Positions 3,181 through 23,987 of a stretch of 64,000 nt of DNA are shown piece by piece. This DNA is from Escherichia coli (GTDB lineage: Bacteria; Pseudomonadota; Gammaproteobacteria; Enterobacterales; Enterobacteriaceae), in NCBI RefSeq assembly GCF_029227855.1, contig NZ_CP074356.1. One strand, given 5' to 3'. The notes under the pieces are model-generated. The model was given only the letters and a program-made list of their open reading frames with translations, had not been told where the DNA came from and made no database searches. The translations under genes and the position numbers were made by a program. Each line of letters begins with the position of its first letter. Position 1 is the first letter of the stretch.

Positions 3181-3750
3181 GTGAGCCAATTCATTCCCGT
3201 CGAATTACACCATGCCAGCCGTCTGTTAAATCATGGCCCAACTGTCATGATCACCAGTTTCGATGAGCAATCCCAGCGGCGTAACATTATGGCAGCAGCC
3301 TGGTCAATGCCGGTGGAGTTTGAACCGCCACGCGTGGCGATTGTGGTAGATAAATCGACATGGACCAGGGAGTTGATTGAACGTAATGGTAAGTTTGGCA
3401 TCGTTATCCCGGGTGTTGCAGCAACTAACTGGACGTGGGCGGTGGGAAGTGTGTCGGGGCGTGATGAAGATAAGTTTAATTGCTATGGTATTCCGGTTGT
3501 GAAAGGTCCGGTGCTTGGTTTGCCGCTGGTCGAGGAAAAATGTCTGGCGTGGATGGAGTGTCGCCTGCTACCTGCAACTTCCGCGCAAGAAAAATACGAT
3601 ACGCTATTTGGCGAAGTGGTATCTGCAGCGGCAGACGCACGAGTATTTGTCGAAGGCCGCTGGCAGTTTGATGATGACAAACTCAATACGTTGCATCATT
3701 TAGGTGCTGGCACGTTTGTTACCAGCGGCAAGCGTGTTACGGCAGGTTAA
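3181..3750 (+). CDS. yddH: Flavin reductase-like domain protein
   Basis: 189-aa ORF recognised as YddH; synteny. Confidence 0.85.
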   Translation: MSQFIPVELHHASRLLNHGPTVMITSFDEQSQRRNIMAAAWSMPVEFEPPRVAIVVDKSTWTRELIERNGKFGIVIPGVAATNWTWAVGSVSGRDEDKFNCYGIPVVKGPVLGLPLVEEKCLAWMECRLLPATSAQEKYDTLFGEVVSAAADARVFVEGRWQFDDDKLNTLHHLGAGTFVTSGKRVTAG

Positions 3751-3753
3751 GCA

Positions 3754-3981
3754 TTACATGCTGTAACCGGGTTTCTTTATCAAAGCCTCCATTTGGGGCT
3801 CGATTTCGGCATCCCAGATAGCTTGCCAAGATTCTGGTTGAATCTGCTGTAGAGAAATGCTTATCGAGCTATCTTTACTGTTCAGATGGCGAATAATAAC
3901 GTCGGTAATATCTGCAGCAAGTGCTGCTTTTTGTTGTTCGTCCAGTTCACGCGGAAAACATTTAATGTCTATGTGCGGCAT
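3754..3981 (-). CDS. pptA: Tautomerase PptA (4-oxalocrotonate tautomerase family)
   Basis: Start at MPHIDIK (N-terminal Pro after Met is the tautomerase catalytic signature); 75 aa; longer ORF-track version adds a non-native N-terminal extension. Confidence 0.85.
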
Positions 3982-4286: not shown

Positions 4287-6263
4287 ATGCAGCTTAATCA
4301 TATCGTTAAAAGTCTGCTAATAACGGGATTATTCACCACCAGTTCTTTACCTCTCCTCGCGGCGGAAGCTCCTAAAGACGCCACCGCAGCCACGCAACAA
4401 GCAAACAATTTACTCTACAACCAGTTGCCGTTTGCCGATAACACTGACTTTACTGATGCCCATAAAGGTTTTATTGCCCCTATCCCTCAAGACGTGATTA
4501 AGGGCGAACAAGGGAATGTTATCTGGGATCCACAACATTACGCTTTTATCAAAGAAGGCGATAAAGCCCCTGATACGGTGAATCCGAGTTTATGGCGTCA
4601 GGCGCAACTGATAAATATCAGCGGGTTATTCGAAGTAACTGAAGGTGTCTATCAGATTCGCAATCTCGATCTATCAAATATGACCATCATTGAAGGCAAA
4701 GAGGGTATTACCGTCGTTGATCCCCTTGTTTCAGCAGAAACAGCCAAAGTGGGTATGGATCTCTATTACAAAAATCGCGGCAAAAAACCGGTAGTGGCGG
4801 TTATCTATACACACAGTCATGTCGATCACTACGGTGGTGTTCGTGGCGTAATTGATGAAGCTGACGTTAAATCAGGCAAAGTTAAAATCTATGCGCCAGC
4901 CGGATTTTTGGAGGAAGCCGTTTCCGAAAACATCATGGCTGGCAATGTTATGAGCCGACGAGCCAGTTATATGTATGGCAACTTATTGAAACCTGATGTT
5001 AAAGGCCAGGTGGGGGCTGGACTGGGAACGACTACTTCAGCAGGAACAGTCACGTTGATTGCTCCTACTAACTACATCACCAAAACCGGACAAAAAGAAA
5101 CTATTGACGGGTTGACTTATGATTTCCTGATGGCGCCAGGTTCTGAAGCGCCTTCTGAAATGCTGTGGTTTATTGAAGAAAAGAAACTGATCGAAACCGC
5201 TGAAGATGTCACGCACACCCTTCATAACACCTATTCGCTGCGTGGGGCTAAAATTCGCCAACCGCTGCCGTGGTCAAAATATATTAATGAAGCTCTCAAT
5301 TTGTGGGGTGATAAAGCCGAGATTATTCTCGCTCAACATCACTGGCCAACCTGGGGCAACGATAACGTGGTCAAACTGCTTAAAAGCCAGCGTGATTTGT
5401 ATCGTTACATCAATGATCAAACTCTGCGCATGGCTAATCAAGGGATGACCCGTGATGAAATTGCCGCAAACTTTAAACTGCCCTCTTCACTGGCTAACAC
5501 CTGGGCGAATCGCGGCTATTACGGTTCGGTAAGTCATGACGTGAAAGCAACTTACGTGCTTTATCTCGGCTGGTTTGATGGTAACCCCGCGACGCTTGAT
5601 GAACTGCCGCCAGAAGAAGGCGCAAAAAAATTCGTCGAGTATATGGGCGGTGCTGATGCCATTTTACAGAAAGCCAAACAGGATTATGACCAGGGTAATT
5701 TCCGCTGGGTTGCCCAAGTTGTTAGTAAGGTGGTGTTTGCCGATCCAAACAACCAGGCAGCGAGAGATCTGGAAGCTGATGCGCTTGAGCAGTTAGGCTA
5801 TCAGGCTGAATCTGGGCCGTGGCGTAATTTCTATCTCACTGGTGCACAGGAATTGCGTAATGGCGTACAAAAATTACCAACACCAAATACTGCCAGCCCA
5901 GACACCGTGCGTGCGATGACGCCGGAGATGTTCTTTGATTATCTTGCCGTCCATATTAATGGTGAGAAAGCGGCAGATGCCAAAACCGTGTTGAATTTCG
6001 ATTTTGGTGAAGATGGCGGCACCTATAAAGTGGAGCTTGAAAATGGTGTTCTCAATCATACCGCTGGTGTAGAGGCTTCGGATGCTGATGCCACTATCAC
6101 TCTGTCTCGTGATGTATTGAACAAAATTGTACTGAAAGAAGAGACGCTGAAAGAAGCCACGGCCAAAGGAGATGTCAAAATTACTGGCAATGAGGAAAAA
6201 CTCAACGAGCTGTTAGGTTATATGGATAATTTTGAATTTTGGTTCAATATAGTGACACCATAA
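4287..6263 (+). CDS. Secreted YjcS/SdsA1-like alkyl (aryl) sulfatase, metallo-beta-lactamase fold
   Basis: 658 aa; N-terminal signal peptide (LLITGLFTTSSLPLLAAEA); THSHVDHYGG metal-binding motif; RBS GGAGA upstream. Accessory relative to the K-12 gene order as remembered. Confidence 0.8.
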   Translation: MQLNHIVKSLLITGLFTTSSLPLLAAEAPKDATAATQQANNLLYNQLPFADNTDFTDAHKGFIAPIPQDVIKGEQGNVIWDPQHYAFIKEGDKAPDTVNPSLWRQAQLINISGLFEVTEGVYQIRNLDLSNMTIIEGKEGITVVDPLVSAETAKVGMDLYYKNRGKKPVVAVIYTHSHVDHYGGVRGVIDEADVKSGKVKIYAPAGFLEEAVSENIMAGNVMSRRASYMYGNLLKPDVKGQVGAGLGTTTSAGTVTLIAPTNYITKTGQKETIDGLTYDFLMAPGSEAPSEMLWFIEEKKLIETAEDVTHTLHNTYSLRGAKIRQPLPWSKYINEALNLWGDKAEIILAQHHWPTWGNDNVVKLLKSQRDLYRYINDQTLRMANQGMTRDEIAANFKLPSSLANTWANRGYYGSVSHDVKATYVLYLGWFDGNPATLDELPPEEGAKKFVEYMGGADAILQKAKQDYDQGNFRWVAQVVSKVVFADPNNQAARDLEADALEQLGYQAESGPWRNFYLTGAQELRNGVQKLPTPNTASPDTVRAMTPEMFFDYLAVHINGEKAADAKTVLNFDFGEDGGTYKVELENGVLNHTAGVEASDADATITLSRDVLNKIVLKEETLKEATAKGDVKITGNEEKLNELLGYMDNFEFWFNIVTP

Positions 6264-6275
6264 ATTTACTGCATA

Positions 6276-6301
6276 CCGGGCAGGTATCCTGCCCTTTTTT
6301 G
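6276..6301 (+). terminator. Rho-independent terminator after sulfatase gene
   Basis: GC stem gggcagg-tat-cctgccc followed by T-run (tttttt). Confidence 0.7.
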
Positions 6302-6309
6302 GTTAAAAA

Positions 6310-7407
6310 ATGGCTGAACGAAGAAAAACTCATCACTCATGGAAAACCCGCCGCAATATGGTTATTCGCGGCATGACGATTAGTTTGCCATGGTTTGCTT
6401 TTATCAATGTCAGTTTTGCATTGATAATTTTGCTGCGCCGTGTTCTGTTTAATGACCTTACTCCACCCTGGTTAAATGAAAAAAGCCTTATACATTCTAT
6501 TGATATATCTGCAACGGGTATTCTGCTGATTTGCAGTGGTTTACTACTCATCCCTCGGCAAAAAACATTACCTATCCAGGTGCTATTAGTTGCCCTGAGC
6601 CTGCTATGGTCATGGTGTAGTTATCACTTTATTGCGTACTGGACGCTGCAGTTTGCTTATCCACTATGTGTATTATTAATGCTTAGTGGCGTTGTCGCAA
6701 TTTATTTCCATACCCCATCATTGCTCGCATTTGTCATTCCCTTATGGTTCACCACTCCAATAGCGAGTCTTATGCTTAATCAACAGATCAATATTCATTT
6801 TGCTGTTGTATGGTGTATTTTTTCACTGGCGCTATATGGTGGGCGACTCATTTTGTTACGTTGGTTTGAAGAAGCATGGGTACAAAACAGTTATAACAAC
6901 CAGTTAATTAATCGCCTTGATGCATTAGCACATCGTGCTCCTTTAACTGGGATAGCAAACCGACGTGCAATGAACAGTATCTTACACGACACGATGGATA
7001 ACGGCGGGTCATTTGCTCTTATTATGCTGGATGTCGATTTTTTTAAACGTTACAACGACACTTACGGGCATCCTGCTGGGGATCGTTGTCTAATACAAGT
7101 TGCCGACGCTCTACAGCGTTCAACTCGCCAGTCGGAGGATGTTGTTGTCCGTTATGGTGGCGAAGAGTTTGCCATCATACTTTTTAATGCAACATTGCCG
7201 GAAGCAGAGACGGTAGCAGCCAGAGTGAAGCAAGAACTTAAACTGGCAGCTATCCCACATCAGGCATCTGCTGTTAATGCATTCGTTACGGTTAGTCAGG
7301 GGATTACCTGTTCTGCTCCCGCAAAAACGGCTGAACAAATTATTTCAGATGCCGACGCTGCGTTATACCGGGCGAAAGAAAGTGGGCGAAATCGATGGGC
7401 TTTATAA
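6310..7407 (+). CDS. Membrane-anchored diguanylate cyclase (GGDEF domain, intact GGEEF active site)
   Basis: 365-aa ORF; N-terminal half has multiple hydrophobic helices, C-terminal half has the RYGGEEF motif. Exact start uncertain (alternative ATG at 6358). Confidence 0.75.
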   Translation: MAERRKTHHSWKTRRNMVIRGMTISLPWFAFINVSFALIILLRRVLFNDLTPPWLNEKSLIHSIDISATGILLICSGLLLIPRQKTLPIQVLLVALSLLWSWCSYHFIAYWTLQFAYPLCVLLMLSGVVAIYFHTPSLLAFVIPLWFTTPIASLMLNQQINIHFAVVWCIFSLALYGGRLILLRWFEEAWVQNSYNNQLINRLDALAHRAPLTGIANRRAMNSILHDTMDNGGSFALIMLDVDFFKRYNDTYGHPAGDRCLIQVADALQRSTRQSEDVVVRYGGEEFAIILFNATLPEAETVAARVKQELKLAAIPHQASAVNAFVTVSQGITCSAPAKTAEQIISDADAALYRAKESGRNRWAL

Positions 7408-7480
7408 GCATTAGGGGACTGGACAGATTACGTCTCTCCTCGCTTAACAAGGGCTGACGGAGGGTAATAATTGTCTATAG

Positions 7481-8617: not shown

Positions 8618-9103
8618 TCATATTTTTAATATAGCCCCATGAGCTATAGGATCAAAACCTTCTAACCATGAGGTGTTTTTATCGAATAATGCACCTGTTA
8701 TATTTATATCGCCATATCTATCACATAATAAATTAGCGCCACATAAGTCAGCACCAGAAAAATTTGAATCTTTAACGTCTGCATTGCAAAAGGTTGAATT
8801 AGTTAATATAGCACCCTCAAAGTTTGCACCTATTGACCTTGAATTACTAAAGTCACTTCCAGTGAAATCTGAGTTATTAAGAATAGCGTTCATCAGAGCC
8901 GCATTGCGAAAGACAGCATTTCTAGTTGATGTATGTTGAATCATTACATTTCTTAAATGGGAATTTTCAAATTTCGCCCCATCAAGACAATAACCATTGA
9001 GGATGGCACGATGTAGATCCATCCCGCTAAAATCATATCCAGCAAGAGTGGTACTATCTATATCAAGAAATTTATTGGTTATTAAAAACGCGATTCTTAT
9101 CAT
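8618..9103 (-). CDS. Pentapeptide-repeat protein, predicted Rhs immunity protein (positional equivalent of K-12 ydcD)
   Basis: 161 aa; about 20 consecutive A(D/N)(L/F)xx-type pentapeptide repeats ([15 protein letters not shown] ... [15 protein letters not shown]); start codon overlaps the rhs stop in ATGA arrangement; AT-rich. Confidence 0.8.
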
Positions 9104-12100
9104 CTATTCCCCCAATCATCTAACTCCGGAAAAATTTGGCTAAACGGATATAGTGGTGCCGATAATGGACGCGTACCTGGCCGCTCAGGAGGAAGTTTAT
9201 CACATAACAGACCCGCAACCATCCTGTGATTACCATTAACAATCACATTCCCATCCATATCAACCGGTGGTGCTCCACTACCATCTTCCAGCATTTGTAC
9301 GTAGTGAGCTACTACGGGTACTGAGACTTTTTGTTGTACTGTCAACAAGGGACTGTTGGCCACAACCATCCTGATGTTTTCAGGTGTCGCAGGTAAACAT
9401 TTAGTCTTCTCTTGACTAAAGGTATCATCCCACAATTTTGTTAAACCCATCACTGCCTGTTGTCTGTATTTATCCATGGGGTCAGCAATCAACCAAGATG
9501 GACCTGACTGCTCTATGGAATCTTCTCCGGAGAGACCCAACGGATCTATCTTAGTAGTTGGATTCAATGGATACTGATACAGGTTCCATGCACCTCTTAG
9601 CCCAATGGGATCCTGGGTGATATACCGCCCCTGCAACGGGTCATAGTACCGGTTGCGGTTATAGTACAGCCCCGACTCCTCATCATACTGCTGCCCCGGC
9701 AGACGGTACGGCTGTTGCAGTTGCTGCGCGCTGGTTTCGCCCAGCAGGTTTCCCCACTCGTCATACTCCCCCTGCCACGCCGTTTCCCCTACCGGGCTGA
9801 TGAGCGCCTGCGGCAGCCCCCGGTGGTCGCAGTGGTAAAGATGAAGTGTCCTCTCCGGGATGTATTCCGCCTCCATCTGGTTTTTCATCTGTTCCGCCGT
9901 CAGCCCGCACTGCTGAAGCCATGCCTCACTCTCCGCACTCACCGCACCCGCGCGCAGTTCCCGCTCCAGCCTCCCCAGCATCACCGACAGCTCCGCCGGT
10001 AGCGTCACCCCCGTGTCCTCCTGCAACACCTCCGCCAGACTCCGGTGCCGCGCCTTCGCCTGTTCACCATTCTCTGTTTCGATTCTGATGAGCGGCGTGA
10101 AGCTCCCCGGCTGGTATACCGTCTGGATACGCGTGGTGCCGGTCTGTACCGTCGTCAGCCTGTCACCGTCCCACCCGTACCAGGTCTCCTCCGGTTTACG
10201 CGACAGCGACATCCACCCCGTCAGGTCACGCTCCCGCCGCCACACCCGTTTCCCCGTCCGGCGGCCCAGCGGGTCATAGAGGTAGCGGCTCTCCACCTGT
10301 GGTTCGCCGTGCTGTATCCGCGTGTAGAACACCAGGCGGTGCTGGCTGTCGTAATGGTAGTGGTGGGTCCGCTCGTCGTGCATCCGGATAACCCCTTCCG
10401 GGATACGATCCGTCTTCTCCGCCAGCCTGCCGTATTCATCGTGGCGGTAGACATAGTGCGCATCCTCCGCGATGCGGTTATCCGGCCACGCCGTGAAGGT
10501 GCTGTCCGGGTGCAGTTCCGGGTCCGGCAGCCGGTTTCCTGCCGGGTCCGTCGCATACGGGATATCGATATCCAGGTTCGCCGCCGTGGTGTGAACGCCC
10601 GTCAGTCTTCCCGTGTCGCTGTAACGGTACTTCCGGCTCTCCTGCGGGCCGCTGATGCGCACCAGTTGCCCGTTATCGTTCCACGTATACTCACGGTCAA
10701 GCTGCGGAAGGTTCAGGTGCCTGCTCCGGAGCTGCCCTGTGAGGGTGTACGCCATGGCCTGTTCGTACCCCGCTGTACTGCCCGCCCCGCCGAAGCTGCG
10801 GGCCGTCTCACGGTGCAGCCGGTCCCGCGTGTACTCGACCAGCGGCGTTCCGCCCAGCTTCATCCCCGCAAGATAACCGCTGCCATACGTCAGCCACTCC
10901 ACCGGCGGCAGACCGTCCGGCTCCTGACGGGTCGCCAGCCCCTGTTCGCTGTAGACGTGCCTCGTCTCATGCTCCCACAGCATCTCCCCCGTCTCCTGGT
11001 TCTCCACCGTCTGCCGTTCGCCCGTCAGGCGGCCTTTATCGTCATAGCCGTAGTGGACCGCCACACGGTGGCCTTCGCTCAGGTGGCTGATTTCTGTCAG
11101 CCAGCCGTGGTCGTCATACTGCCACTGCTCCGCCGGGTCGCCGTTCACCGTCCGGTGCGTGATGCGCCCGGCGTCATCGTAGTACCACTGCGTGACCTGC
11201 CCCTCATCCTCGCTGCGGATGAGCTGCCCTGTGGCGCTGTACCGGTAACGCTGTGTCCTGCCGTCAAAGCCGCGCTGCTCCGTCAGCCTGTCCACCGGGT
11301 CATACCGGAACGTGGACTGGCTGCCGTTCTCGTTGGTCAGCACGGTGATGCGCCCGGCGGCGTCATACTCCATGCTGCGCGTCAGTCCGCCCTGCGTGGT
11401 GCTGACGGCCTTTCCCCACGCATCATACTGTGTCTCACTCCGGCTGCCGTTCGGGGCAATGATAGCGGTGAGGTCGCCTGCGGCGCTGTACTCATAACGG
11501 GTTTCACGTCCCTGCGCATCCTTCTGACTGACCAGTTGACCACGCGGGTTATAACTGCTGTAAGTGCTGATGCCTTCCTCCCGGTGAACCGCCGTCCTCT
11601 GACCGTACCGGTCGTATTCATACCGCGTCGTGTACCCTGAACAGTCCGTAAATGCCTGAAGCTGACCGTACCGGTTTCGCGTTATTCTCCGCCTCACCCC
11701 GGTTCCGTCTTCCACCGCACAGGGCAGGCCACTGCGGGAAGAATCATAAAACCAGCGCGTAATGTTACCGTTGCGCGAGACCTCTTCCGCCAGCCTGCCC
11801 TGACGGTCATATTTCCGGCTGCGGCGCAGCCCGTCCGGGTACGTCACTGACGTCAGTTGCAACTGGTTGTTGTAACCATACCGTACCGTCCTGCCGTCCG
11901 GCAGTATCACTGAAGTCAGCTTTCCCGACGCCATATGCAGCCGGTACTCCGTCCGCCGTCCCGCCGCATCCGTCTGCGCCTTCAGCCTCCCCGCCTCATC
12001 ATACTCGCTGCGGGTGATGCTCCCGTCCCCATGCTCCTTCTTCACCACCCGCTTCAGGCCGCCCTCGCCCTCCGTGTACAGCACCTCCCGCCGGTTCAGG

Positions 12101-13311
12101 CTGTCCGTGATGGTCACGCGGTCCTGCCCGTACTCAAAGCGGTAGTCCAGCCCCTCCGGGTTGACCTGCTCCGTCACCCGACCGGTATCATCATACCGGT
12201 AGCGGCTCTCCGGCCTCCCCGCATAATGGTGCGCCACCATCCGCCCGGCGTGCTCCGCATCATAAGTAAACCCGCGCACCTGCGTCCCGCTGCGGTCATA
12301 CACCGCCCGCAGTTCTCCGCTGGCCGTGTACGTGTAGCGCGCCAGCGGCGCAGTCGGCAGTTCATCCAGGTATGCCAGGTCGTGTGTCAGCCATACCGCC
12401 TCCAGCCGGATACCGTTATCGGCACCGTACTCTGTACCGGTGGGCAGCGTGTCGGGGAAAACCTGAGAAGAGGAAACAGAACGGGGACTGGCCGGAGAAG
12501 ATAAAGAAGAGGCGCGCTGTTTACGGAAGGCTTTCGCCCGCTGCGCCTGTGTGGTCAGCGCCAGATGAAAACGGCGGCCCGCGCCGTCCGTCACCCCCGT
12601 CACCGCGCCCGCCGCTTCCCCCTCTGCCGCCCGGTGGAAGGCCAGCGTCCGCCCGAAGCTGTCCACCACGCCCGTCAGCACCCGGTATGCGGGCGGCTCC
12701 GGCGGCAGCACCTCGTCCGCCTCCGGCACCCGCTCCGGCCAGCCGAGTATCCACCACGGCCCCTGAAGGCTGTTTGTCGCCAGGTACACATGCGGGCTTA
12801 AGCGGAGACTCTCCGGCAGCACCTGCCAGAGCGCGCTTAGCGGCTGCGAACTGTGCTGCTCCGCCACCCCGCCCCTTGCCAGCCAGAACGACTCGCTGCG
12901 GCTGTAGCTTATCTCGCCGGGAAACAGCGGCTCAAAGTGAATGCTCCTGCCGCCACTGTCGTTGAGTATCAGTTCCCGCTCATGAACCTGTAAGCGGATA
13001 TCGAAGGGCGCTTTCCAGCCGGGACCAAACACCCCCACCGGCGCGGGTGTTCTGGTCCGGTAGCTGCTGTAGGCGCGGGAAAGAATAAACGGCAACGGGC
13101 CGGGCAGCGCAAGATCCGTCTCGCCCGGCAGCACCTTCGCACCCAGTAGCGGGTTCACCGGGTTACCCTTCTGCTCCTCCACCGGGCTGTTGGGACACAC
13201 CGAGCAGGCCACTCCCGTCGGCGCACCTATCAGCACCCCCGCTGAACCCTGCACAATATCCAGTCCCTTGCGGGTCATATCGCCCTGTCGCGCCGCCGGT
13301 TTTCCGCTCAT
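9100..13311 (-). CDS. Rhs polymorphic toxin, full length (PAAR-like N-terminus, YD-repeat core, variable C-terminal tip with ParB-like motif)
   Basis: 1403 aa; N-terminus [11 protein letters not shown]; long GC-rich YD-repeat core; core-end DPxGL motif (..DPIGL..KIDPLGL) followed by an AT-rich roughly 143-aa tip (about 9100..9531). Confidence 0.9.
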
Positions 13312-13731
13312 GGTTTATTCCTTAAATTATTTATGGTTTTATTCTGAGTGCAATCCATACTGATTCATAACCAGTGAATAAGATTTCCCCGAATAATCTA
13401 TATAAATTAGCGAAGTCCTCTTCACTAATTAACCGTAAAATCCCGTACCAATGAAATATAAAAATAACCACCCACACAAATTTATTGCAAATATTATTCA
13501 TTATTGTATATACATCATTCACTGAACGTTCTCAAACTGCATACCTTAGAACCATCAATTAAAGCCACAACAAAAAAATCGATTACTTTATGTCGCATGA
13601 CAAATATGAATTACATATTAATCAACCTTAAAAACAATCATCTCTTATAATTAACAGCATACCATGAGAAACACAAAATCAATTTACCATGCATACCAGG
13701 AGCATAATTAACCTCTCACCGCAGGGCGAAA

Positions 13732-14097
13732 TCATGAAGGCCCGCAGCCAGCAAGGATTAGAGAAAGGTATTCATTCTTACGTCCTGCCCGCTTTTGCTT
13801 GCGTTTAATACCCGCTTTAAAGCTATTCTCTGCGGTCAGTAAATTCATCGCGATATGTCGACAAACTGCCAGATTTTCTCCCGCTTCTCCACGAACAATC
13901 TGGCATTCATCTTCCCGCATCCCCATATCAAGTCGCCAGTGCAGTTGATTTTCTACCGACCAGTGTGCTCGTGTTGCTTCCAGGAGTTCTTTCGCCGTAA
14001 GCGTCACCGAACTTATGTAGTAGCGAAGAATACACTTCTCTGATTTCACCGCTGTTTCTCCTTCCAGGGCAAGATTACGAAAGCCCGCTCCCCGCAA
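13732..14097 (-). pseudogene. H-repeat (ISAs1-family) transposase C-terminal fragment, diverged copy
   Basis: 121-aa ORF whose C-terminal 95 aa align to the C-terminus of the intact H-rpt protein (HWxVENxLHWRLD motif). Confidence 0.65.
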
Positions 14098-15211
14098 GGA
14101 CTGACGCCAGATAGTTTCTGTCCATGGCTGCTTTTCGCATCTTACGTCTTAACCCTGCCTTGAATACCTTATCATTCGTTAAAATATTAATAGCGATGTG
14201 CCGTATCCCTGAAAATAATTCTGCGGCGTTTCCTCTTCCTATTTTGCAGTCGTCTTCATTCATTACCACGTCCAGACGCCAGTGCAGCTTATTCTCCACG
14301 TGCCAGTGGTTTCGGATTGCTGTGGCGAACTTCTCTGCGGTTAAATCAGCAGAACTGATATAATATCTGACCGTCATTTCTGGCTCTTTCTTTTGTTCTG
14401 CTATTATTGACCGAAAGGAGACTGCCACGCATAATTTCTTCAGTCCTTTCCATTCAAACATTAAATCAATAAGTTCATCAGGGACATCACAAACAATGTG
14501 AAGACGGATTTCTTCTCTGCCGTGACTCTTTTCACTAATTGCGTAACTGTCATGCTCTGGATTATTTAATTCTTTCAGTGGGAATTTTTCCTCAAAGGCT
14601 TTATTTAGCCGCCCCTGGTTTCCTTTTACAGCGAATAAATAATCACCTCCCTGTTTTTGTATCTTCTCTGCAATATCTTTCTGGCAACCCATCGCATCAG
14701 TTGTGATGATTTTTCCTTTAATATCCAGCATGTTAAGAAGTTCAGGGATAGCTGTAATTTCATTTGATTTCTCATCCGTCCTGATCTGTCCGATGACCAG
14801 ACTGTGCATTGTTGAGAACGCACTAATGACATGAATCGCTCCCTTGCGGCGACTCTTGTCATAAGGATGCCGGAGTGTTTTTCCATCAATTGCGATGACG
14901 TCTTTATCAGCTGAAGAATGGCAGTCACGCATCCAGTTAATAAAGCACTCGTGAAATTTTGCAGGACTGATACAGGATACAACTCTGGCAATGGTATCGT
15001 GAACAGGAATACCATTTTCAAAATCACCATATTGCTTCAAAAAATCGAGATGTGTTTCCCCAAAATCCTCTATATCTTCCCAGCATTCTGCACCAAAAAT
15101 AACGGCACAAATAGTCAACAGTAGAATATCCGACAATTTATGTTCCACTTTCCAGGCTTGTCTGTAATCGGGGATAATAGAAATATGTTCCATCAATTTT
15201 TTAAGTTCCAT
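14075..15211 (-). CDS. H-repeat-associated protein / ISAs1-family transposase (intact)
   Basis: 378 aa, recognised as E. coli H-rpt (YdcC/YhhI-like) protein. Confidence 0.9.
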
Positions 15212-15487
15212 TTTGTTCTCCTTAATTATGTAAGGAGTATTTGATCATGTATACGCAATAAAAAACAGCTTTAGGTAATAAGGAATATCTCAATTTTTAA
15301 ACATAAAATGCGAATTATTTAGTACAAAAAGTGAACTTCTGATGATCTTTCCCTGCCCATTGGGTTCATTAAGATCAAGAATAATGGGAATATGCTCAAG
15401 AAGACTTTGAATGTTCACCAGACGTCCTTTTCTAATATATTTAATTATTTGGCGATTAAATTTTAATCAAATCAACAAGGTAAAACC

Positions 15488-15525
15488 AAGATTAAAGTTG
15501 TGATGATAATCACAACTTTAATGAT
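15488..15525 (-). terminator. Hairpin downstream of Rhs copy-2 immunity gene (putative terminator)
   Basis: 14-bp perfect stem attaaagttgtgat/atcacaactttaat with a 4-nt loop; a short U-run follows on the minus strand. Confidence 0.45.
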
Positions 15526-15557
15526 CTTCCCCTGATTCCTCCAGTCCTTTTATTTGG

Positions 15558-15932
15558 TTACTCTAATGGTTTTATTAATTGTAAATTTTTAAATGTCATG
15601 CTTAATAAGCCATCAGAAAAATAAAGAAAAAATTTATATATCCTTTTGTTTTTTAATTTCTTTATATACCCATTACTTATATTACCTGACTTGTGATTAT
15701 CGATTAACTCAGCAGAATCCATAGCGAACACTAAATCATCTACATCAGAAAATTCAACTATCATTTTTTCCCTAATGTTCTCATTTTTATAAATGTCAAT
15801 AAATAACGTCATGTTAAAATGAGATTCTTTGAATGTCGTTTTTACTTCTAACAAAACCCCATCATGCCAGTCAATTGAACTCACAATGTCAAAATCGCTC
15901 ATTATATAATCTCCATTATCCGTTTTAATCAT
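15558..15932 (-). CDS. Predicted immunity protein for Rhs copy-2 toxin (hypothetical, AT-rich)
   Basis: Start chosen at MIKTDNGDY so that ATG overlaps the toxin stop (ATGA coupling); very AT-rich; no recognisable domain. Longer alternative start at 15965. Confidence 0.6.
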
Positions 15933-18900
15933 GGAGTAACAACGTTTGCAGGTATTGACCACCAAAGAGGTGGTGCAAGTGAAGGTATAAATCGAATCAC
16001 TCTATATATAACATACCCTGCGCCAATTGTAGCACCAGTTGCAAGAGCCGCATCAGTAGTTGATAGCCCAGAGGTTTTGCATGACAGATCTTTACTTGGT
16101 TCTGGCTCGAAACCATATTTTTTTGCACATTTCTTAATGCTATTTGGTGCTGATGAGTAATCCTCACCATGGGACATACCTCCAAATTCCCCCATTACAC
16201 CACTCCCATTTTTACACTCCCAATGCAAATGTCTTCCGTCACCAACAGCATCGCCATCTATTCGGATTCGACAACCTTTACCACAGTCCTTCCATTTTCC
16301 TGAAGTATGAGCTAATCCCAATGGATCAATCCATTGCACAGGATTGTTCATAACATAACTGTACGGGTTTATTCCCCCCGCCAGCCCTATCGGGTCCTGG
16401 ATGATATACCGCCCCTGCAACGGATCGTAGTACCGGTGACGGTTATAATACAGCCCCGACTCCTCATCGTGTTGCTGCCCTGGCAGACGGTACGGCTGGT
16501 GCAGGTGATGCGGGTTTTCCTCATTCAGCAGGTTCCCCACTCATCATACTCCCCGCTCCACGCCGTATTGCCGTCTTCGCTGATGAGCGCCAGCGGCAGG
16601 CCCCGGTGGTCGCAGTGGTAAAGATGAACTTTTCGCGCCGGTGTGTATTCCGGCTCCACCTGTCTGGCCAGTTGCTCCACCGTCAGCCCGCACTGCGCAA
16701 GCCACGCCCGGCTTTCGTTACTCACGCGGTCTGCCCGGATTTCTCCCTCCAGCCTGTCCAGCAGCCGCACCAGTTCAGCCGGGAACACCACACCGTGCCC
16801 GTCCTCACTCCCTTCCGACTGTAACTTCTCCGCCAGGCTGCGGCGCTGCGCTTTCTCCCGTTCGCCGTTCTCTGTTTCGATGCGGATGAGTGGCGTGAAG
16901 CTTCCCGGCTCGTATACCGTCTGGATACGTGTGGTGTCAGTCTGCACCGTCGTCAGCCTGTCGCCGTCCCACCCGTACCATGTCTCCTCCGGTTTACGCG
17001 ACAGCGACATCCACCCCGTCAGGTCACGCTCCCGCCGCCATACCCGTTTCGCCATTCGCCGTCCCAGCGGGTCGTAGAGGTAGCGGCTCTCGACCAGTGG
17101 CTCGCCATGCTGTATCCGCGTGTAGAACACCAGGCGGTGCTGGCTGTCGTAGTGGTAGTGGTGGGTCCGCTCGTCGTCCGTCCGTATCACACCCGCCGGG
17201 ATGCGGTCCGTCTTCTCTGTCAGCCTGCCGTATTCATCGTGGCGGTAGACATAGTGCGCATCCTCCGCGATGCGGTTATCCGGCCACGCCGTGAGTGTAC
17301 TGTCCGGGTGCAGCTCCGGGTCCGGCAGCCGGTTGCCCGCCGGGTCCGTGGCATACGGGATGCGGATGTCCAGGTCCGGTGCGAGGGTGCGTACACTCGC
17401 CAGCCTGCCCGTGGCACTGTAGCCGTATTCCCGCGTCTGTCGCGGGCCGCTGATGCGCACAAGGTCGCCGTTGTCATTCCACCCGTAGTCACGGTCATAC
17501 ACCAGGCTGTTCAGGTGCTGGCTCTGTAACTGGCCTGCAGGGGTGTATGTGCTGGTCAGTTCGTATGCGGCATTACTGCCTGCCATGCTGCCAAAGCTGC
17601 GCACCGTCTCCCGGTGCAGCCTGTCCCGCGTATACTCGACCCGCGGCGTCCCGCCCAGCTTCATTCCCGCCAGGTAACCGCTGCCATAGGTCAGCCACTC
17701 CACCGGCGGCAGGCTGTCCGGCGTGACGCGGTTTGCCAGCCCCTGTTCGTTGTATGCCTGTTTCGTCTCATGCTGCCACAGCAGTTCCCCCGTCTCCGGG
17801 TTCTTCACCGTCTGGCGCTCACTGGTCAGACGGCCTTTATCGTCATAGCCGTAGTGGACCGCCACACGGTGGCCTTCACTGGTATGGCTGAGGGTGGTTA
17901 ACCACCCGTGCTCATCATACTGCCACTGCTCTGCCGGGTCGCCGTTCACCGTCCGGTGCGTGATGCGGTCTGCTTCATCGTAGTACCACTGCGTGACCTG
18001 CCCCTCATCCTCGCTGCGGATGAGCTGCCCTGTGGCGCTGTACCGGTAACGCTGTGTCCTGCCATCAAAGCCGCGCTGCTCCGTCAGGCGGTCCAGCACA
18101 TCGTAGGTAAATTCACTCCGGCTGCCGTTCTCGTTGGTCAGCGTGGTGACACGTCCTGCCGCGTCATACTCCATACTGCGCGTCAGCCCGCCCTGCGTGG
18201 TGCTGACCGCTTTTCCCCACGCATCGTACTGTGTCTCGCTCCGGTTGCCGTCCGGGGTGATAACGGCAGTCAGGTCGCCTGCGGCGTTGTACTCATACTG
18301 CGTTTCACGGCCCTGTGCGTCTTTCACCGAGGTTAACCGGCCACGGTTGTCATAGCGGCGGTAACGGCTGATACCTTCCTCGCGGTGGACCGCCGTCATC
18401 TGACCAAAGCGGTCGTATTCATAGCGGGTCTGGTAGCCCGAGCAGTCGGTGAACGCCAGCAACTGACCGTAGCGGCTCCAGGTCATCTGCCGGGTGCTGC
18501 CCGTCGCATCCATTGTCGTCGCCGGTAACTCACTGTACGCGTCATCGTAGCGGTAGCGTACTGTCTCCCCGCTGCGCGATGTCTCCGTTACCAGCCTGCC
18601 CGGTTCATCATATGCCCGGCGGCTCTCCAGCCCGTCCGGGGACACCACTGCCGTCACCTGGTTCCCGTCGTTATAGTAAAATTTCGTCTCCCGCCCGTCC
18701 GGTGTGGTGATGTCCGTGATATCGCCTGACACCACATTCAGACCGTACTCTGTCCGCCGTCCCGCCGCGTCCGTCTGCGCCGTAAGCCTTCCTGCCGCGT
18801 CATACCCACTGTGCGTGGCGCTGCCGTCCGCCAGTTCTTTTTTCACCACCCGCCTCAGCCCGGCCCCGCCTTCTGTATGCAGCACCTCACGCCGGTTCAG

Positions 18901-20088
18901 GCTGTCCGTGACGGTGATGCGGTCCTGCTCATACTGGTAGCGGTAACTCAGGCCTGCCGGGTTCAGCTGCTCCACCACCCGCCCCGCATCGTCGTAGCGG
19001 TAGCGCATCTCCGGCCTTCCCGCGTAACGGTGCGCCACCATCCGGCCCGGGTGCTGCGCGTCATACGTGAAAGCGCGCACCTGCGTATTGCTGCGGTCAT
19101 ATACCGCCAGCAGTTCACCGGCTTCCGTATACGTGTACCGCGCCAGTGGCGCACCGGGCAGATTCTCCGGGTATGCCGGGTCATGCATCAGCCACACCGC
19201 TGAAAGACGGATGCCCCTGTCGGGGCCGTATTCCGTACCGGGCAGTGTGTCGGGGAACGCTGAGGCTGAGAGAGGGCGGGAACGGTCAGAAGAAGATAGC
19301 GAAGAGGTGCGGGCCTCTTCCGCCCGCTGCGCCTGCGTGGTCAGCACCAGACGGAACTTCCGCCCGGCACCGTCCGTCACGCCGGTGATTTCCCCGGCCA
19401 GGTCACCGGCGGCCTCACGCCGGTACGTCAGCGTCTGCCCGAAGCGGTCCGCCAGCCCGGTAAGCACCCGGTACGGCGGCAGCGGCGCTGGCAGTACGTC
19501 CTCAGTGCCCGGCACCCGCTCTGACCACCCCAGTATCCACCACGGTCCCTGTGCGCTGTTGGTCGCCAGGTAAAGATGCGGGCTTAACCGGATATCCGGC
19601 GGCAGCGACGGCCACAGCCGTGCCAGCGTGTGGCCGTCCGGCTGCGCTGCCTTACCACCGCGAACCAGCCACATTGACTCGCTGCGGCTGTACACCGCCT
19701 CCCCCGGCAGCAGCGGCTCAAAGTGAATGCTCCGCCCGCCGTTGTCGTTGAGTATCAGTCCGTCATCACGTATCTGTAAGCGGATATCAGAAGGCGCTTT
19801 CCAGCCGGGGCCAAAAATCCCCACCGGCGCAGGCGTCTTCGTCCGGTAGCTGCTGTAGGTGCGGGAGAGAATGAACGGCAGCGGGCCGGGCAGCGCAAGG
19901 TCCGTCTCGCCGGGCAGCACCTTCGCCCCCAGCAGCGGATTTACCGGGTTGCCCGAAGTCATCCCGCCCGGACACACCGAGCACGCCACGCCGGTGGACG
20001 CGCCAATTCTTACACCTGCCGAACCCTGGACAATGGGACCGCCATACTGAGTCATATCTCCCTGACGCGCCGCTGGTTTTCCGCTCAT
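15929..20088 (-). pseudogene. Rhs polymorphic toxin copy 2, interrupted by a 1-nt frameshift between core (16525..20088) and DPxGL/toxin tip (15929..16540)
   Basis: 1187-aa core ORF ends ..EYDEWGTC while a separate 203-aa ORF carries the core end ([38 protein letters not shown]) and a Cys/His-rich tip. Rhs copy 1 has tttcccca where copy 2 has ttcccca (around 16531..16539). Confidence 0.8.
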
Positions 20089-20154: not shown

Positions 20155-22263
20155 TCAGTACTCTCTCATATCCGGCGTATCCTGCTTTTCATCAGGGGTC
20201 TTCGGTGGGGATTTCGAGGCTGCACAGTTCCAGTTAATCAACAGTGAGTCACCATTAACCTGCTCCTTACCCTGCAAATGAATTTTTGTGCCGTTGAGAA
20301 AAATTTGTCCGTCCTTAGTCAGCACCAGCCTTGCCTTACCACAGCAGAGTTCCAGATGCTCACCGGCGGAGTAAATCGCGGTCTGCCCGGTATCATCCTT
20401 TTTCGTTTTACCAACGGTGAAGGTAACGTTATTTCCGACTTTGACGTCATAACCCAGCCCGACCATCAACGACTTATGCAAACCGATCTGCGAGGACTGC
20501 ATCAGGGCCACCGAGGTGTTCATAATGCCACCTACCGTCGTCTGATACGCCACGCCCACGGTCAGCGCACGAACAAGTCCAATCGTTTCCACCTGAACAG
20601 AGCCCACTTTAATGATCTGGTTACTGCCCACCGTCTCTATCTGGTTAACGCCCACCGTCTGTATCTGATTGTTGGTAACCGCAATCACCTGATTGTTGCC
20701 GATGGTCTCAGCATGGCTGTTTATCACATCCGTGGTTCGGTTATTCAGCACCTCAGTGTTCATGTTCTTCTGCGCGTGGATGTAGACCTGTTCTTTCCCT
20801 GTCGCATCGTCAAACTTCAGTTCATTAAACCCGCTGCCCTTATAGGTTTTCGAACGAATGGTCATCTGCGTCTTTGTTCCCGGCAGGCTGCCGGGGGTGC
20901 GGTTTTCCTGGTGGTAGGTACGCCCCATAATAATCGGCTGGTCCGGATCGCCGTTGAGGAAGTCCACAATGACTTCCTGACCCACACGCGGTATCGCCAG
21001 GTTGCCAAAGCCGGTGCCTGCCCACGCCTGTGCCACACGGATCCAGCATGAACTGTCCTGGTTTGACGGGTTATAGCGGTCCCAGTTAAATTTCACCCGC
21101 ACGCGGCCATGTTCATCACAGAAGATTTCTTCTCCTGCCGGTCCCGTCACGACGGCGCTCTGCGGGCCGTCCACCAGCGGTTTCAGCAACGGCTGTGGCC
21201 GCCATGTTCTGTCTGCCGGTATTACCGCAAAGTGGTTATTCAGCGTGGTACCTGAACCCCTGCGTCCCGGCACCGCCTGCGGCTGCTCGCCGTGCAGTTC
21301 ACTTGCCACCACCTGCCATTCCCGGTTCAGGTTCGCCTGCGGATGCCCCGTCAGCGCAATTCGCCGTCCCGGCCATATCTCCGGCGAACGGCTTGTTCCG
21401 CGCGCCACTTCTGCGTTGTTTCGCCAGCCATCCATCTGCCAGCAGGCAAAGTTCTGCCCGTGGGCACCCTTGAAACGTCCGGGGTAGTCATACACTTCAT
21501 ACTGTGTGCGCTGGTAATCCTGGTGCTGGCCTTCCTGATCAAAACGCCCTGCCCAGCCGGGTCGTTTAAAGGTGTAGTCTTTGGTCACCACGGAAGATGG
21601 GCGGATTTGTGCGCTGTAGCGGAACTGGCTGATGCATAGGGTGCTCACCTCGGTACGGGTGTTCGGATTCCAGGGGATCTCAAAGGACTCCGGCAGATAA
21701 CGCACGGTGTCGCACAGGACCAGGCTCTGGTCGGTACTTTTTTGCGCGTGCTCCTCATAAAAGAAGATGCCTTCCTCCGCCGCCATCCGGCACAGGAAAT
21801 CGTAATCGGTTTCGCCGTACTGGACACAAAACTCACGGGAAGGATGCGGCTCGCTGAACAGCGGACTCCACTCGGTCACCCCGTTTTCTTTCAGGATCGT
21901 CGCGAGTATGCTTTCGATGTCCTCATTCTGGAAGATACGGAAGTTCTGGCGCAGCCCTGTGCGCCACAGCGGTGGGCACACCTTCATGCTGTACAGCATC
22001 TGGTTTTTGTCGTTCTCCCCCAGTTCAAACCAGGTCACCACACCTTTCACCCGGCGCTGTACGTCATCGCCCTGCCATACCGTCAGGTAGGCCATTTTGT
22101 CCAGCACCTGCGCAAATTCAAGGGAGAGAAACTGCTGGCTGACCAGAGAGAGATCGAGGGAAAAGAGCGAAGAGAGTGACTGGTTCAGATGAAAGGAGAC
22201 CACCGCAAACGCGTCCGGTGGCAGGCCGTCCACTTCCAGCGTGAAACGTAATCCGGTTGACAT
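20155..22263 (-). CDS. vgrG: Type VI secretion spike protein VgrG
   Basis: Start taken at MSTGLRFTLEVDG with GGAGG RBS (702 aa); recognised VgrG gp27/gp5-like sequence including repetitive beta-helix segment (VGVNQIETVGSNQIIKVGSVQVETIG); 66 nt upstream of the Rhs copy-2 start. Confidence 0.9.
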   Translation of the reverse strand: MSTGLRFTLEVDGLPPDAFAVVSFHLNQSLSSLFSLDLSLVSQQFLSLEFAQVLDKMAYLTVWQGDDVQRRVKGVVTWFELGENDKNQMLYSMKVCPPLWRTGLRQNFRIFQNEDIESILATILKENGVTEWSPLFSEPHPSREFCVQYGETDYDFLCRMAAEEGIFFYEEHAQKSTDQSLVLCDTVRYLPESFEIPWNPNTRTEVSTLCISQFRYSAQIRPSSVVTKDYTFKRPGWAGRFDQEGQHQDYQRTQYEVYDYPGRFKGAHGQNFACWQMDGWRNNAEVARGTSRSPEIWPGRRIALTGHPQANLNREWQVVASELHGEQPQAVPGRRGSGTTLNNHFAVIPADRTWRPQPLLKPLVDGPQSAVVTGPAGEEIFCDEHGRVRVKFNWDRYNPSNQDSSCWIRVAQAWAGTGFGNLAIPRVGQEVIVDFLNGDPDQPIIMGRTYHQENRTPGSLPGTKTQMTIRSKTYKGSGFNELKFDDATGKEQVYIHAQKNMNTEVLNNRTTDVINSHAETIGNNQVIAVTNNQIQTVGVNQIETVGSNQIIKVGSVQVETIGLVRALTVGVAYQTTVGGIMNTSVALMQSSQIGLHKSLMVGLGYDVKVGNNVTFTVGKTKKDDTGQTAIYSAGEHLELCCGKARLVLTKDGQIFLNGTKIHLQGKEQVNGDSLLINWNCAASKSPPKTPDEKQDTPDMREY

Positions 22264-23369
22264 AGCAACCTCCGTGAAAATGAATAATAATCCGCACATA
22301 TTGCATGTACAACATGTCGGGCGGATGAGATAAGCGAGTCGACATCTGGCGTTACCGGGGAATATCAAAAAAATGTCATGGTTATGTGATGATTTAGTCT
22401 GGGATTTTACTTCAGAGAAACGGGTGTCTGTTTAGTCAACAAAATAATCACAAACGCAACGGATGGGTTCTCGACGTTATTCACGACAGGCTCGTACATT
22501 ACAGCGAGTAATAAAAACCTGATATGCAAAGTCAAACCAATATTCATAATGTCTTTTTATTCACAACAATAAATAATTCAATAACAATCATTGAAATGAA
22601 TGATGGTTTGTATAAGGAATATACGCTACCGCCCCACCCTGATAACATGATCTGCACATTGCCATCTTAACGTCGTTAAACACTGGCTTAATAGTGGATA
22701 TTTAAAATTAGGAATTTATTAAATTCACCTGATGAATATCATAAGCAAATAGCATAGAAAATAATGACAACTCCCCCGAGGGGACCATTTCCAAAGCACT
22801 GCACCACCACCTGGTGCCCGGATGATCTTGCTTCAGTGGTAAGAGTACCTGATTCATTGTTCCCAAAATGGTGTTTTCCCGGGCCCCTCCAATAATGTGC
22901 AACTCTCACGTGATAATCTATTGATTAGGTTATATTAAGAATCAATATTTGAAATACATCCATTTTCTTGAATAAATCAACATGTTTATTTATCAATTGC
23001 TGTTTTAGCTCTGACTCATCAAGCTCTCCATATTTGTCCTACAGATAATCGCGAATAAATACAGAGAACGCCATTTATCCTTTTAGCATACCTGCCGGAT
23101 ATTTTTATTTGTATTAATATTAATTGCATCTCCAACTCCGGGCATATCCATCATTAAAAACATTTTGAGATTATAGAATGCCTGTGATAACAACTGAAAC
23201 ATCTGCACAATGTGAATAGTTAGTTTCTTTTCAGAGGAAATGAAATAGACAAGCTGAATGAAAGGGAGAGTGATATAAATTAAAAAAATAACATGAATCT
23301 AATTAATTACGTCCATCATTGTGGATAAAGTTACTGAATAATAAATAACATAATCTTCTGGTATCCCAC

Positions 23370-23987
23370 TCAAATAATTTCATTCCTTTTTAATACTTCT
23401 TGTAATTTCGGTAACTGACATACAGCTTCAGCGATCGCGCTGATATTCTGCGCATTATCGTGAAACCATTCATGCCCCGGCCCCCATGTGCGCATGGTGC
23501 AGAGATAACAGTCCACCAGCGTTAGTTGCTCGCCAAAGGCATAAGGTTCAGCGGTCAATTGTGAATTCAGCCAGATATAAAGCGATTTACGATATTCAAT
23601 AACATTCTTCTTTAACTGTTCGGGTGCGTCAGGAGCCCAACGCTCAGGGTAATCGGCGAAAGTGAATGTTGGATAGACATTAGCAACCAGCCAGACCAAT
23701 AGCCGTTGAAACTGCTGACGTTCGGCGCGCCCAACCGGTGGCGCAAGGTCCGGGCGACGATCGAGAACCATCAATGCAATCGCCGCTGTCTCCGTCATAA
23801 TCTCGTCATTTTCCAGCGCCAGTGTCGGAATCTGACACAACGGGTTCAGGGTTTTCAATAACTCGCGTGAAGTTCCCTCGTGGTCAAAACCACTGACATC
23901 AACGAACTGATAAGGAATATCAGCCAGTGTTAGCATCAGCTCACTGATTGTAGAGCCCCATCCGGGTACGCCATACACCTTAATCAT
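23370..23987 (-). CDS. yncG: Glutathione S-transferase-like protein
   Basis: 205-aa ORF recognised as YncG (GST fold). Confidence 0.85.
   Translation of the reverse strand: MIKVYGVPGWGSTISELMLTLADIPYQFVDVSGFDHEGTSRELLKTLNPLCQIPTLALENDEIMTETAAIALMVLDRRPDLAPPVGRAERQQFQRLLVWLVANVYPTFTFADYPERWAPDAPEQLKKNVIEYRKSLYIWLNSQLTAEPYAFGEQLTLVDCYLCTMRTWGPGHEWFHDNAQNISAIAEAVCQLPKLQEVLKRNEII

Follow-up and report, generated by a model that had tools for sequence, protein, structure and literature searches.

In the rfb (O-antigen) operon with its JUMPStart/ops leader and in the other classical RfaH operons (waa, hly, kps, and tra), an operon polarity suppressor (ops) element is placed on the non-template strand, in the 5′ leader of a long, horizontally acquired and H-NS-bound operon. 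Elements of this type were also reported in type VI secretion system (T6SS) clusters of many enterobacteria, and in the sci1 T6SS of enteroaggregative Escherichia coli (EAEC) ops1 and ops2 together with rfaH are needed for activity, as mutations in the ops elements or in rfaH lower the T6SS activity (bioRxiv 10.1101/2025.02.08.637259). The closest described locus is c1882-c1889 of E. coli CFT073, a cryptic, RfaH-regulated and H-NS-bound T6SS auxiliary operon, in which Hustmyer et al. (2022) counted the 12-mer located 313 bp ahead of c1882 (1715753-1715764) among eight bona fide RfaH-loading sites (PMC9765446). The RfaH chromatin immunoprecipitation (ChIP) signal was found there in the Δhns ΔstpA background and was absent in ΔrfaH, the locus being H-NS-bound and its initiation silenced in the wild type (PMC9765446). 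In this work, we analyzed the 1106-bp interval between yncG and vgrG (22264-23369) within a 64,000-nt stretch of E. coli DNA (contig NZ_CP074356.1, assembly GCF_029227855.1), referred to below as the window. It is likely that this interval is an H-NS-bound T6SS leader with an ops element serving RfaH, built as a three-part mosaic, and that a patch of higher GC content within it has no function of its own. This reading is based on the base composition, the gene positions, the mosaic boundaries, the conservation and placement of the ops block and its identity to a ChIP-supported site, all of which were observed here.

The same 12-mer, GGCGGTAGCGTA, is located at 22622-22633, 370 nt ahead of the ATG of vgrG and on the minus strand, which is the sense (non-template) one here. 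It agrees with the ops consensus GGCGGTAGCGTG at 11 of 12 positions, conforms to the ops pattern GGCGGTAGnnTG and includes the GGTAGNNT core. It is also the sole match with at most one mismatch that lies in an intergenic leader, the chance expectation being 0.29 per window. The element is on the sense strand of vgrG within the untranslated leader, no annotated coding sequence (CDS) extends over 22622-22633, and the short open reading frames (ORFs) overlapping it are not conserved across lineages. Two of these ORFs are probably spurious, i.e., a 37-aa sense ORF (22544-22657, minus strand), which is named a putative membrane protein in some GenBank records and contains a stop codon in LF82, and a 48-aa antisense ORF (22524-22670, plus strand), which is flanked by stop codons in strain 40EC. 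The AT-rich leader is followed by vgrG, rhs, ISAs1, and rhs, all in one orientation and together spanning about 14 kb, and H-NS binding was reported for the K-12 orthologue. An earlier note on this DNA, which had proposed H-NS silencing of the interval, is supported in that part and missed the ops site at 22622-22633, the feature with a known mechanism.

Base-by-base comparison confirmed that the conserved block of the window is also present in CFT073, that its 3′ end there is the 12-mer at 1715753-1715764 and that it follows a yncG pseudogene and precedes PAAR–vgrG. The two loci occupy the same chromosomal site, downstream of ansP and yncG, share the identical ops GGCGGTAGCGTA and differ at only two positions of the 37-bp block, and in both of them the sense-strand ops lies in an AT-rich untranslated leader, 313 bp from the first T6SS gene there and 370 bp here (in LF82, the distance between the 12-mer and the PAAR start is likewise 313 bp). 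The CFT073 locus is H-NS-bound. The differences concern the cargo (PAAR-vgrG-DUF2169 in CFT073 versus vgrG-rhs here), the leader downstream of the block, which is unrelated, and the yncG-proximal part, as CFT073 is devoid of yncH and of the patch, and its yncG is not intact. RfaH binding was measured in CFT073, whereas the present lineage is known from its sequence; by analogy, RfaH would act at the 22622-22633 copy as well.

The K-12 spacer between yncH and rhsE is 97.7% identical to the interval along 1039 bp, in which yncH, the patch (with a 1-bp deletion), the block and the ops are all contained. What sets K-12 apart is the loss of vgrG in full, along with the final ~64 bp of the leader and the 5′ portion of rhsE, so that its ops leader runs into a truncated pseudogene. 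The sci1 cluster of EAEC resembles the locus in having ops and RfaH control of T6SS genes, but there the elements sit between genes of the main structural cluster, whereas the one described here belongs to the 5′ leader of an orphan vgrG-rhs island.

The ops forms the 3′ end of a 37-bp block, GTGCAGATCATGTTATCAGGGTGGGGCGGTAGCGTAT (22621-22657, minus strand), which is the most conserved part of the leader. The block is single-copy in the 64-kb window and was found in 4738 of 5426 E. coli genomes, at one to three places in each, and it is near-invariant while its flanks diverge past alignment. At least six different cargo sets have it ahead of their first ORF, at a distance of ~60-370 bp: vgrG–rhs; vgrG–DcrB–PAAR-rhs; PAAR–vgrG with DUF2169 or other genes; a set made up of a 189-aa protein, a lipoprotein, vgrG, and DcrB; ISAs1 and then rhs; and an array of small ORFs to which no function is assigned. 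With the cusS cassette as the sole exception, the alternative cassettes are all found at one site, which lies downstream of yncG or ansP. In the cusS-locus copies (L017 and L018, as well as lineage b of the metagenome contigs), the ops is replaced by the variant AGCGGTAGCATA, which is off the consensus at positions 1, 10, and 12.

The block belongs to a longer conserved module of ~130 bp. Six nucleotides before the block (seven in the cusS-locus copies) there is a -10-like hexamer, TAAGAT (22664-22669, minus strand; TATGAT in the B2-type copies), which falls within the invariant CGxTAxGAT columns of alignments A3 and A4. Further upstream, an AT box, GTGAATTTAATAAATTCC (22701-22718, minus strand), was distinguished on the basis of the alignments and the nhmmer profile matches, and its form AATTTAATAnATTCC is conserved ~45 nt upstream of the block. 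RNAalifold applied to the module gave -6.8 kcal/mol with 0 compensatory pairs, and this lack of covariation places the conservation at the level of the primary sequence, which fits an element read as single-stranded non-template DNA. A coding role of the block was rejected, as the lineages do not share the sense ORF (MAMCRSCYQGG...). Inspection of alignments A2-A4 by eye revealed no sigma-54 site (TGGCA...), Fur box/GATC or PhoP box near the block that is conserved across lineages. A literature search for the block sequence found no paper containing it.

Beyond the ops, the block is not a classical JUMPStart. The locus is similar to the classical RfaH operons in the strand and leader placement of its ops and in the long, horizontally acquired, H-NS-bound operon that follows. 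The 25-27 nt upstream of the ops are not alike, since 58% of shuffles score at least as high as the observed alignment. The K-12 rfb JUMPStart copy, GGCGGTAGCGTG, is 76 nt before rfbB, and the ops described here is much farther from the first gene. No Rfam family, and hence no curated JUMPstart model, was recognized on the block at E ≤ 1 over 2.5 kb or at E ≤ 10 over 201 bp, the latter search returning chance-level matches only (fstAT, a small nucleolar RNA, and a viral internal ribosome entry site).

It was further revealed that the interval is composed of segments with different distributions. Many genomes match it at two places, of which the second is either the leader of vgrG in a cusS–vgrG–DcrB–rhs arrangement or the same island behind IS1. 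In the alignment with the cusS-locus leader, ~80% identity extends from the vgrG start to ~22768, and the homology ends directly after the patch hairpin. The leader common to the two vgrG loci thus moves with vgrG. As judged from the sequence, positions 22264-22768 constitute a portable leader of ~500 bp with 36% GC (minus strand), and positions 22769-23369, comprising the patch, an AT-rich spacer and yncH, are specific to this locus. Genomes have yncH and the patch either together or not at all, and this block adjoins the mobile leader. LF82, CFT073, and several metagenome contigs are without it and have the leader module ~200 bp after yncG; in another E. coli lineage, yncG itself is missing; and a divergent "E. 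coli" has no T6SS cargo at all, its yncG leading into genes for a GGDEF protein and a sulfatase. The interval is present in 3539-3836 of the 5426 genomes, with alternative cargo in others. The yncG loci of Citrobacter, Leclercia, Enterobacter, Pseudocitrobacter, and Klebsiella are without yncH, the patch and the conserved block, the exception being one Citrobacter metagenome-assembled genome that carries the latter.

Just before the vgrG Shine-Dalgarno sequence, the portable leader contains a stem-loop with a U-rich tract, UUAUUAUUCAUUUU (22276-22326, minus strand; stem-loop at 22290-22326), which may be an attenuator or a terminator-like element. Its minimum free energy is -17 kcal/mol (z = -2.38, with 4 of 200 shuffles folding as well), and the terminator scan did not pick it up. 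In the cusS-locus copies it is shorter and its fold is not significant (z = -0.35), and in K-12 the stem-loop is gone, being within the deletion that removed vgrG. The fold of the putative 402-nt untranslated region as a whole gave z = -0.71.

The proposal that the interval is strongly AT-rich, horizontally acquired and probably H-NS-silenced is supported. Its GC content is 35.6% (34.6% for 22369-23369, the span delimited in the earlier note, and 33.2% for the interval without the patch), as compared with 50.2% for the whole window and 55.6% for vgrG. Together with this composition, the distribution is patchy, and the mobile leader has its ~80%-identical counterpart at the cusS locus. The K-12 spacer yncH>rhsE was listed with an RpoD-holoenzyme site and an H-NS site in genomic systematic evolution of ligands by exponential enrichment (SELEX) (PMC3946193), and Data set S1 of the CFT073 study assigns K-12 yncH a high H-NS signal (85.5) and flags it as bound (PMC9765446). 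The H-NS reading is thus supported for the K-12 orthologue of the interval, and by analogy it may be extended to the lineage analyzed here.

On this basis, the following course of events may be proposed, in which the H-NS binding (in K-12) and the RfaH loading (in CFT073) were established by others in related strains. The part of the interval next to yncG would be a lineage-specific block, made up of the Escherichia-only yncH, an AT-rich spacer and an average-GC patch ending where the leader begins; it would be followed by the portable, AT-rich leader of ~500 bp that travels with T6SS cargo operons, and finally by the vgrG ribosome-binding site. H-NS (and StpA) would coat the AT-rich DNA, silencing initiation and hindering elongation. 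An RNA polymerase that started upstream of 22633 would transcribe the ops, GGCGGTAGCGTA, on the non-template strand, pause there and load RfaH, and the RfaH-modified polymerase, resistant to H-NS- and Rho-dependent termination, would then read through the ~14-kb array of vgrG, rhs, and immunity genes.

Several observations weigh against this interpretation. Position 12 of the ops is A, while the consensus and the rfb copy have G. The RfaH signal in CFT073 was seen only in the Δhns ΔstpA background, so that under ordinary conditions the site may be cryptic. Both of the rhs genes that follow are pseudogenes with frameshifts, which, together with the K-12 ops leader fused to a truncated rhsE, indicates that the operon copies may be decaying. 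The conservation of the block is partly circular, as the pattern used in the metagenome scan fixed GCGGTAGC; the loci found by synteny or BLAST (L003, L004, L014, and L017-L021) show the same conservation as the metagenome matches. Long stop-free frames persist in the patch in both states of an indel described below. Finally, a promoter upstream of the ops was only inferred: TAAGAT at 22664-22669 is a candidate -10 hexamer, which would place the ops at about +25 to +36, and the only published promoter prediction for this spacer lies downstream of the ops. It is the TTGACT-17-TATTAC promoter predicted by Shimada et al. for the K-12 yncH>rhsE spacer (PMC3946193), which corresponds to a sigma-70 promoter-like site with a 16-nt spacer, TTGACT-16 nt-TATTAC, at 22508-22535 on the minus strand of the window. 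Being downstream of the ops, this promoter cannot feed it. Moreover, the consensus scan put a promoter-like sequence, TTATCA-16-TATATT (22618-22645, 9 of 12 positions), over the ops itself.

The last of these sites speaks for an explanation in which the 37-bp block is primarily the core promoter/operator of the cargo operon, or else a homology anchor for cassette swaps, and not an RfaH site. In its favor, sequence similarity among the cargo lineages stops directly past the block, as expected of a recombination or cassette boundary, and the 25 conserved bases upstream of the ops, which do not resemble the rfb JUMPStart, go beyond what the ops alone would account for. Yet the putative -10 varies by lineage (TATATT, TATTTA, TTTACA, and TATCAG) and the best conserved part is the "spacer", GGGTGGGGCGGTAGCG, which is the opposite of the promoter pattern, while an anchor of the att or terminal-inverted-repeat type would need a second direct or inverted copy of the block and there is none in the window. 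The identical 12-mer has a published RfaH ChIP signal at the orthologous locus, and promoter or anchor roles are in any case compatible with the ops function. We regard this explanation as unlikely.

Other reported regulator-binding sites were compared with the interval. The RpoN genomic SELEX peak named "yncH>ydcD" at 1527534 (PMC8743547) was set aside: the coordinates of that study are, as we take them, in the older MG1655 system, judging from the positions of genes such as xthA and pspA, and on that scale the peak falls in the 3′ part of rhsE, outside the interval. An RpoS-family genomic SELEX peak at 1528272 is outside the interval as well. A FlhDC genomic SELEX peak at 1525236, ~60 bp after the yncH stop codon, is weak (intensity 11) and has no motif listed.

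A separate question is the nature of the "GC patch", for which the earlier note had considered a small gene, a small RNA or a relic of an integrated element. A segment of ~120-137 bp with a higher GC content does exist (54.2% for 22766-22885 and 52.6% for 22769-22905), but such values are ordinary for E. coli (120-bp windows across the whole window have a mean GC of 0.50, sd 0.085), and it is the AT-rich flanks that are anomalous. The patch (22769-22905) is single-copy, specific for E. coli, unannotated (with no feature beneath it among the 30 RefSeq matches listed) and present in 3571 of the 5426 complete E. coli genomes. It was not found on real plasmids, the only "plasmid" match being a 4.8-Mb record. 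Distant-mode blastn (E. coli genomes and plasmids), six-frame tblastn (all fetched loci) and the protein-cluster search revealed orthologues only, and thus no donor. A 1-bp G indel divides 49 sampled copies of the patch into ~24 and 25. It shifts the reading frame, so that the K-12-type state fuses two minus-strand frames into one of 66-71 codons and the window-type state has two overlapping frames. The patch is interrupted by IS3 in one genome, and in another one the region is replaced by IS1 copies (loci L146 and L147). IS1 and IS3 are also inserted in the 22906-23082 spacer of other strains, and in GN4143 (L003) an IS1 is located just upstream of the vgrG leader on the cusS/ybdF side. The patch/spacer region readily accepts insertions. 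In our opinion, the patch is most likely a lineage-specific spacer or relic without its own function, which is a negative inference; its origin as a relic of an integrated element is plausible but unproven.

The possibility that the patch is a small RNA, or that its hairpin (22772-22784) with the U-rich tail is an intrinsic terminator of a yncG-yncH unit, insulating the vgrG leader, was considered next to this. The palindrome pointed out previously, TCCCC-NNN-GGGGA at 22772-22784, is present, and the scan flagged TCCCCTCGGGGGA followed by GTTGTCATTA as terminator-like. Its hairpin is exactly at the junction with the portable leader and is invariant in the sampled haplotypes except for one low-coverage contig. 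Against the terminator, one such site is the chance level (0.8 ± 0.8 in shuffles), the 5-bp stem is followed by an interrupted U tract, and the hairpin folds no better than chance (z = +0.41). For the small RNA, the whole-patch folds (z = +0.96 and -0.50 for the two strands) do not differ from the shuffles, and Rfam gave no match in the patch at E ≤ 1 over the 2.5 kb scanned. The searched K-12 Term-seq supplements contain no 3′ end in the range 1527200-1527499, although low expression could hide one. Both variants are, in our view, quite improbable, and the earlier suggestion of a small RNA was not confirmed.

Equally, the ORFs that overlap the patch, i.e., the 64-aa one on the minus strand (22708-22902) and the 43-aa one on the plus strand (22764-22895), exist as described, together with a further 56-aa one (22739-22909, minus strand) from the ORF list. 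None of the three has a Pfam match at E ≤ 1, and four patch ORF sequences that were looked up are not among 15 billion catalogued proteins. A search for relatives in a collection of 5.8 billion protein clusters yielded six sporadic gene calls only (four labelled E. coli and two ENA entries) and no homologue outside E. coli. That the patch encodes a minus-strand small protein of ~56-71 aa, co-oriented with yncH and vgrG, is very improbable: two overlapping stop-free frames of 61-73 codons are kept in 12 of 12 haplotypes and occasional gene calls form the six clusters, yet the 1-bp indel breaks the frame in about half of the copies, the substitutions show by eye no synonymous bias, the patch is interrupted by IS3 in at least one genome, no protein is annotated there in the RefSeq matches listed, and the searched supplementary file of an E. 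coli small-ORF ribosome-profiling study has no entry at the patch.

Nor is the patch the yncH gene, as had been supposed. This gene, encoding a protein of the YncH family (Pfam DUF5445, E = 5.5e-40), is annotated in RefSeq at 23083-23298 on the minus strand, in a position equivalent to its RefSeq placement in K-12 and about 180-200 bp from the patch, and DUF5445 matches no patch ORF at E ≤ 1. Because of this CDS, the interval is not wholly non-coding, in contrast to its earlier description. As compared with K-12, there is a 1-bp deletion in the T run at the yncH start (window 23290-23300), owing to which an ATT start is annotated in RefSeq. The relatives of YncH are confined to Escherichia and Shigella; the best 120 of 157 matches are all at least 83% identical, and among these 120 the N-termini vary, with total lengths of 62 to 100 aa. 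This variability raises doubt about the real yncH start, and perhaps about the coding status of the gene. It is also worth mentioning that a possible decayed second copy of the module AT box was noticed at 23210-23250 (minus strand), inside the 5′ part of yncH, followed by GTGCAGATG...GTTATCAC (23200-23208 onward) and no ops. The nhmmer profile of lineages d/e/f matched it with E = 0.0063 in the 1.1-kb interval and E = 5.5 window-wide, which is not significant, and the pairwise comparison with lineage f gave z = 4.3. The sequence weakly suggests that the 5′ part of yncH could be an older module copy lacking the ops.

The gene calls used in this work are those of the RefSeq annotation of NZ_AP045174.1, which is 100% identical over the interval, supplemented with the ORF list. 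On the minus strand, the genes are in the order yncG, yncH, vgrG, a frameshifted rhs, a small ORF, ISAs1, a second frameshifted rhs and a pentapeptide-repeat gene, the window being oriented in reverse of the K-12 gene order. The yncG gene (23370-23987), encoding a glutathione S-transferase family protein, is the conserved flank of the cargo hotspot; vgrG (20155-22263), encoding a T6SS Vgr family protein, heads the ~14-kb minus-strand run, and the AT-rich spacer between yncH and the patch (22906-23082) has 30% GC. The leader edge proposed before, at 22369, had to be corrected, as the annotated vgrG start is the ATG at 22263, 105 bp farther, preceded at 5 nt by the Shine-Dalgarno sequence GGAGG (22269-22273), which is kept in the cusS-locus copies. 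The TTG at 22368 is only the end of the maximal ORF and not the annotated vgrG start. A scan of 22000-23600 found no transfer RNA or transfer-messenger RNA.

The two RHS core genes that follow vgrG (15929-20088 and 9101-13311) carry frameshifts and are annotated as pseudogenes; ISAs1 transposase genes are located between them (within 9101-20088), and the motif GGCGGGAGCGTG occurs in both (10227 and 17025), owing to the repeated Rhs core. The island ends with the sulfatase and GGDEF genes (window 4288-7408). In the divergent "E. coli" without yncH or T6SS cargo, these genes stand directly after yncG (locus L005, 6619-9532), and they thereby mark the far edge of the insertion hotspot. On the other side, a K-12 3′-end table (PMC7815308, file 2), with the meaning of its columns read as assumed, contains a 3′ end at 1526823 (-), which corresponds to about position 23414 of the window (plus strand), inside yncG, near its stop codon and antisense to it. 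It would imply that some transcription exits the AT-rich interval opposite to the vgrG direction.

A wider proposal, which we put forward tentatively and consider possible rather than probable, is that the ~130-bp module (the AT box, the -10-like hexamer, the 25-nt stretch and the ops) is a portable "RfaH adaptor". It would head every alternative T6SS cassette of the yncG hotspot (vgrG-rhs; PAAR-vgrG-DUF2169; effector-lipoprotein-vgrG-DcrB; ISAs1-rhs; and the small-ORF arrays), as well as the cusS-vgrG island, and serve as the upstream homology arm for cassette exchange, while yncH and the patch would be the remains of an older, displaced module and its cargo.

Returning to the reading of the interval as an H-NS-bound leader with an ops element, its practical consequence for annotation is that the patch needs no follow-up and that yncH should not be moved onto it, and the 37-bp block may be used as a simple sequence marker for the start of orphan T6SS islands. 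The advance is incremental, as RfaH control of T6SS genes and of the CFT073 site had already been published. The leader of the orphan vgrG-rhs island carries the same ops that recruits RfaH at the orthologous CFT073 locus, and the same conserved block is carried by the truncated K-12 remnant and by the cusS-linked island. This leads to the prediction that orphan T6SS effector islands would be expressed only with RfaH available and with initiation released from H-NS silencing. If the adaptor proposal is true, all orphan T6SS effector islands of E. coli would be under one H-NS/RfaH switch.

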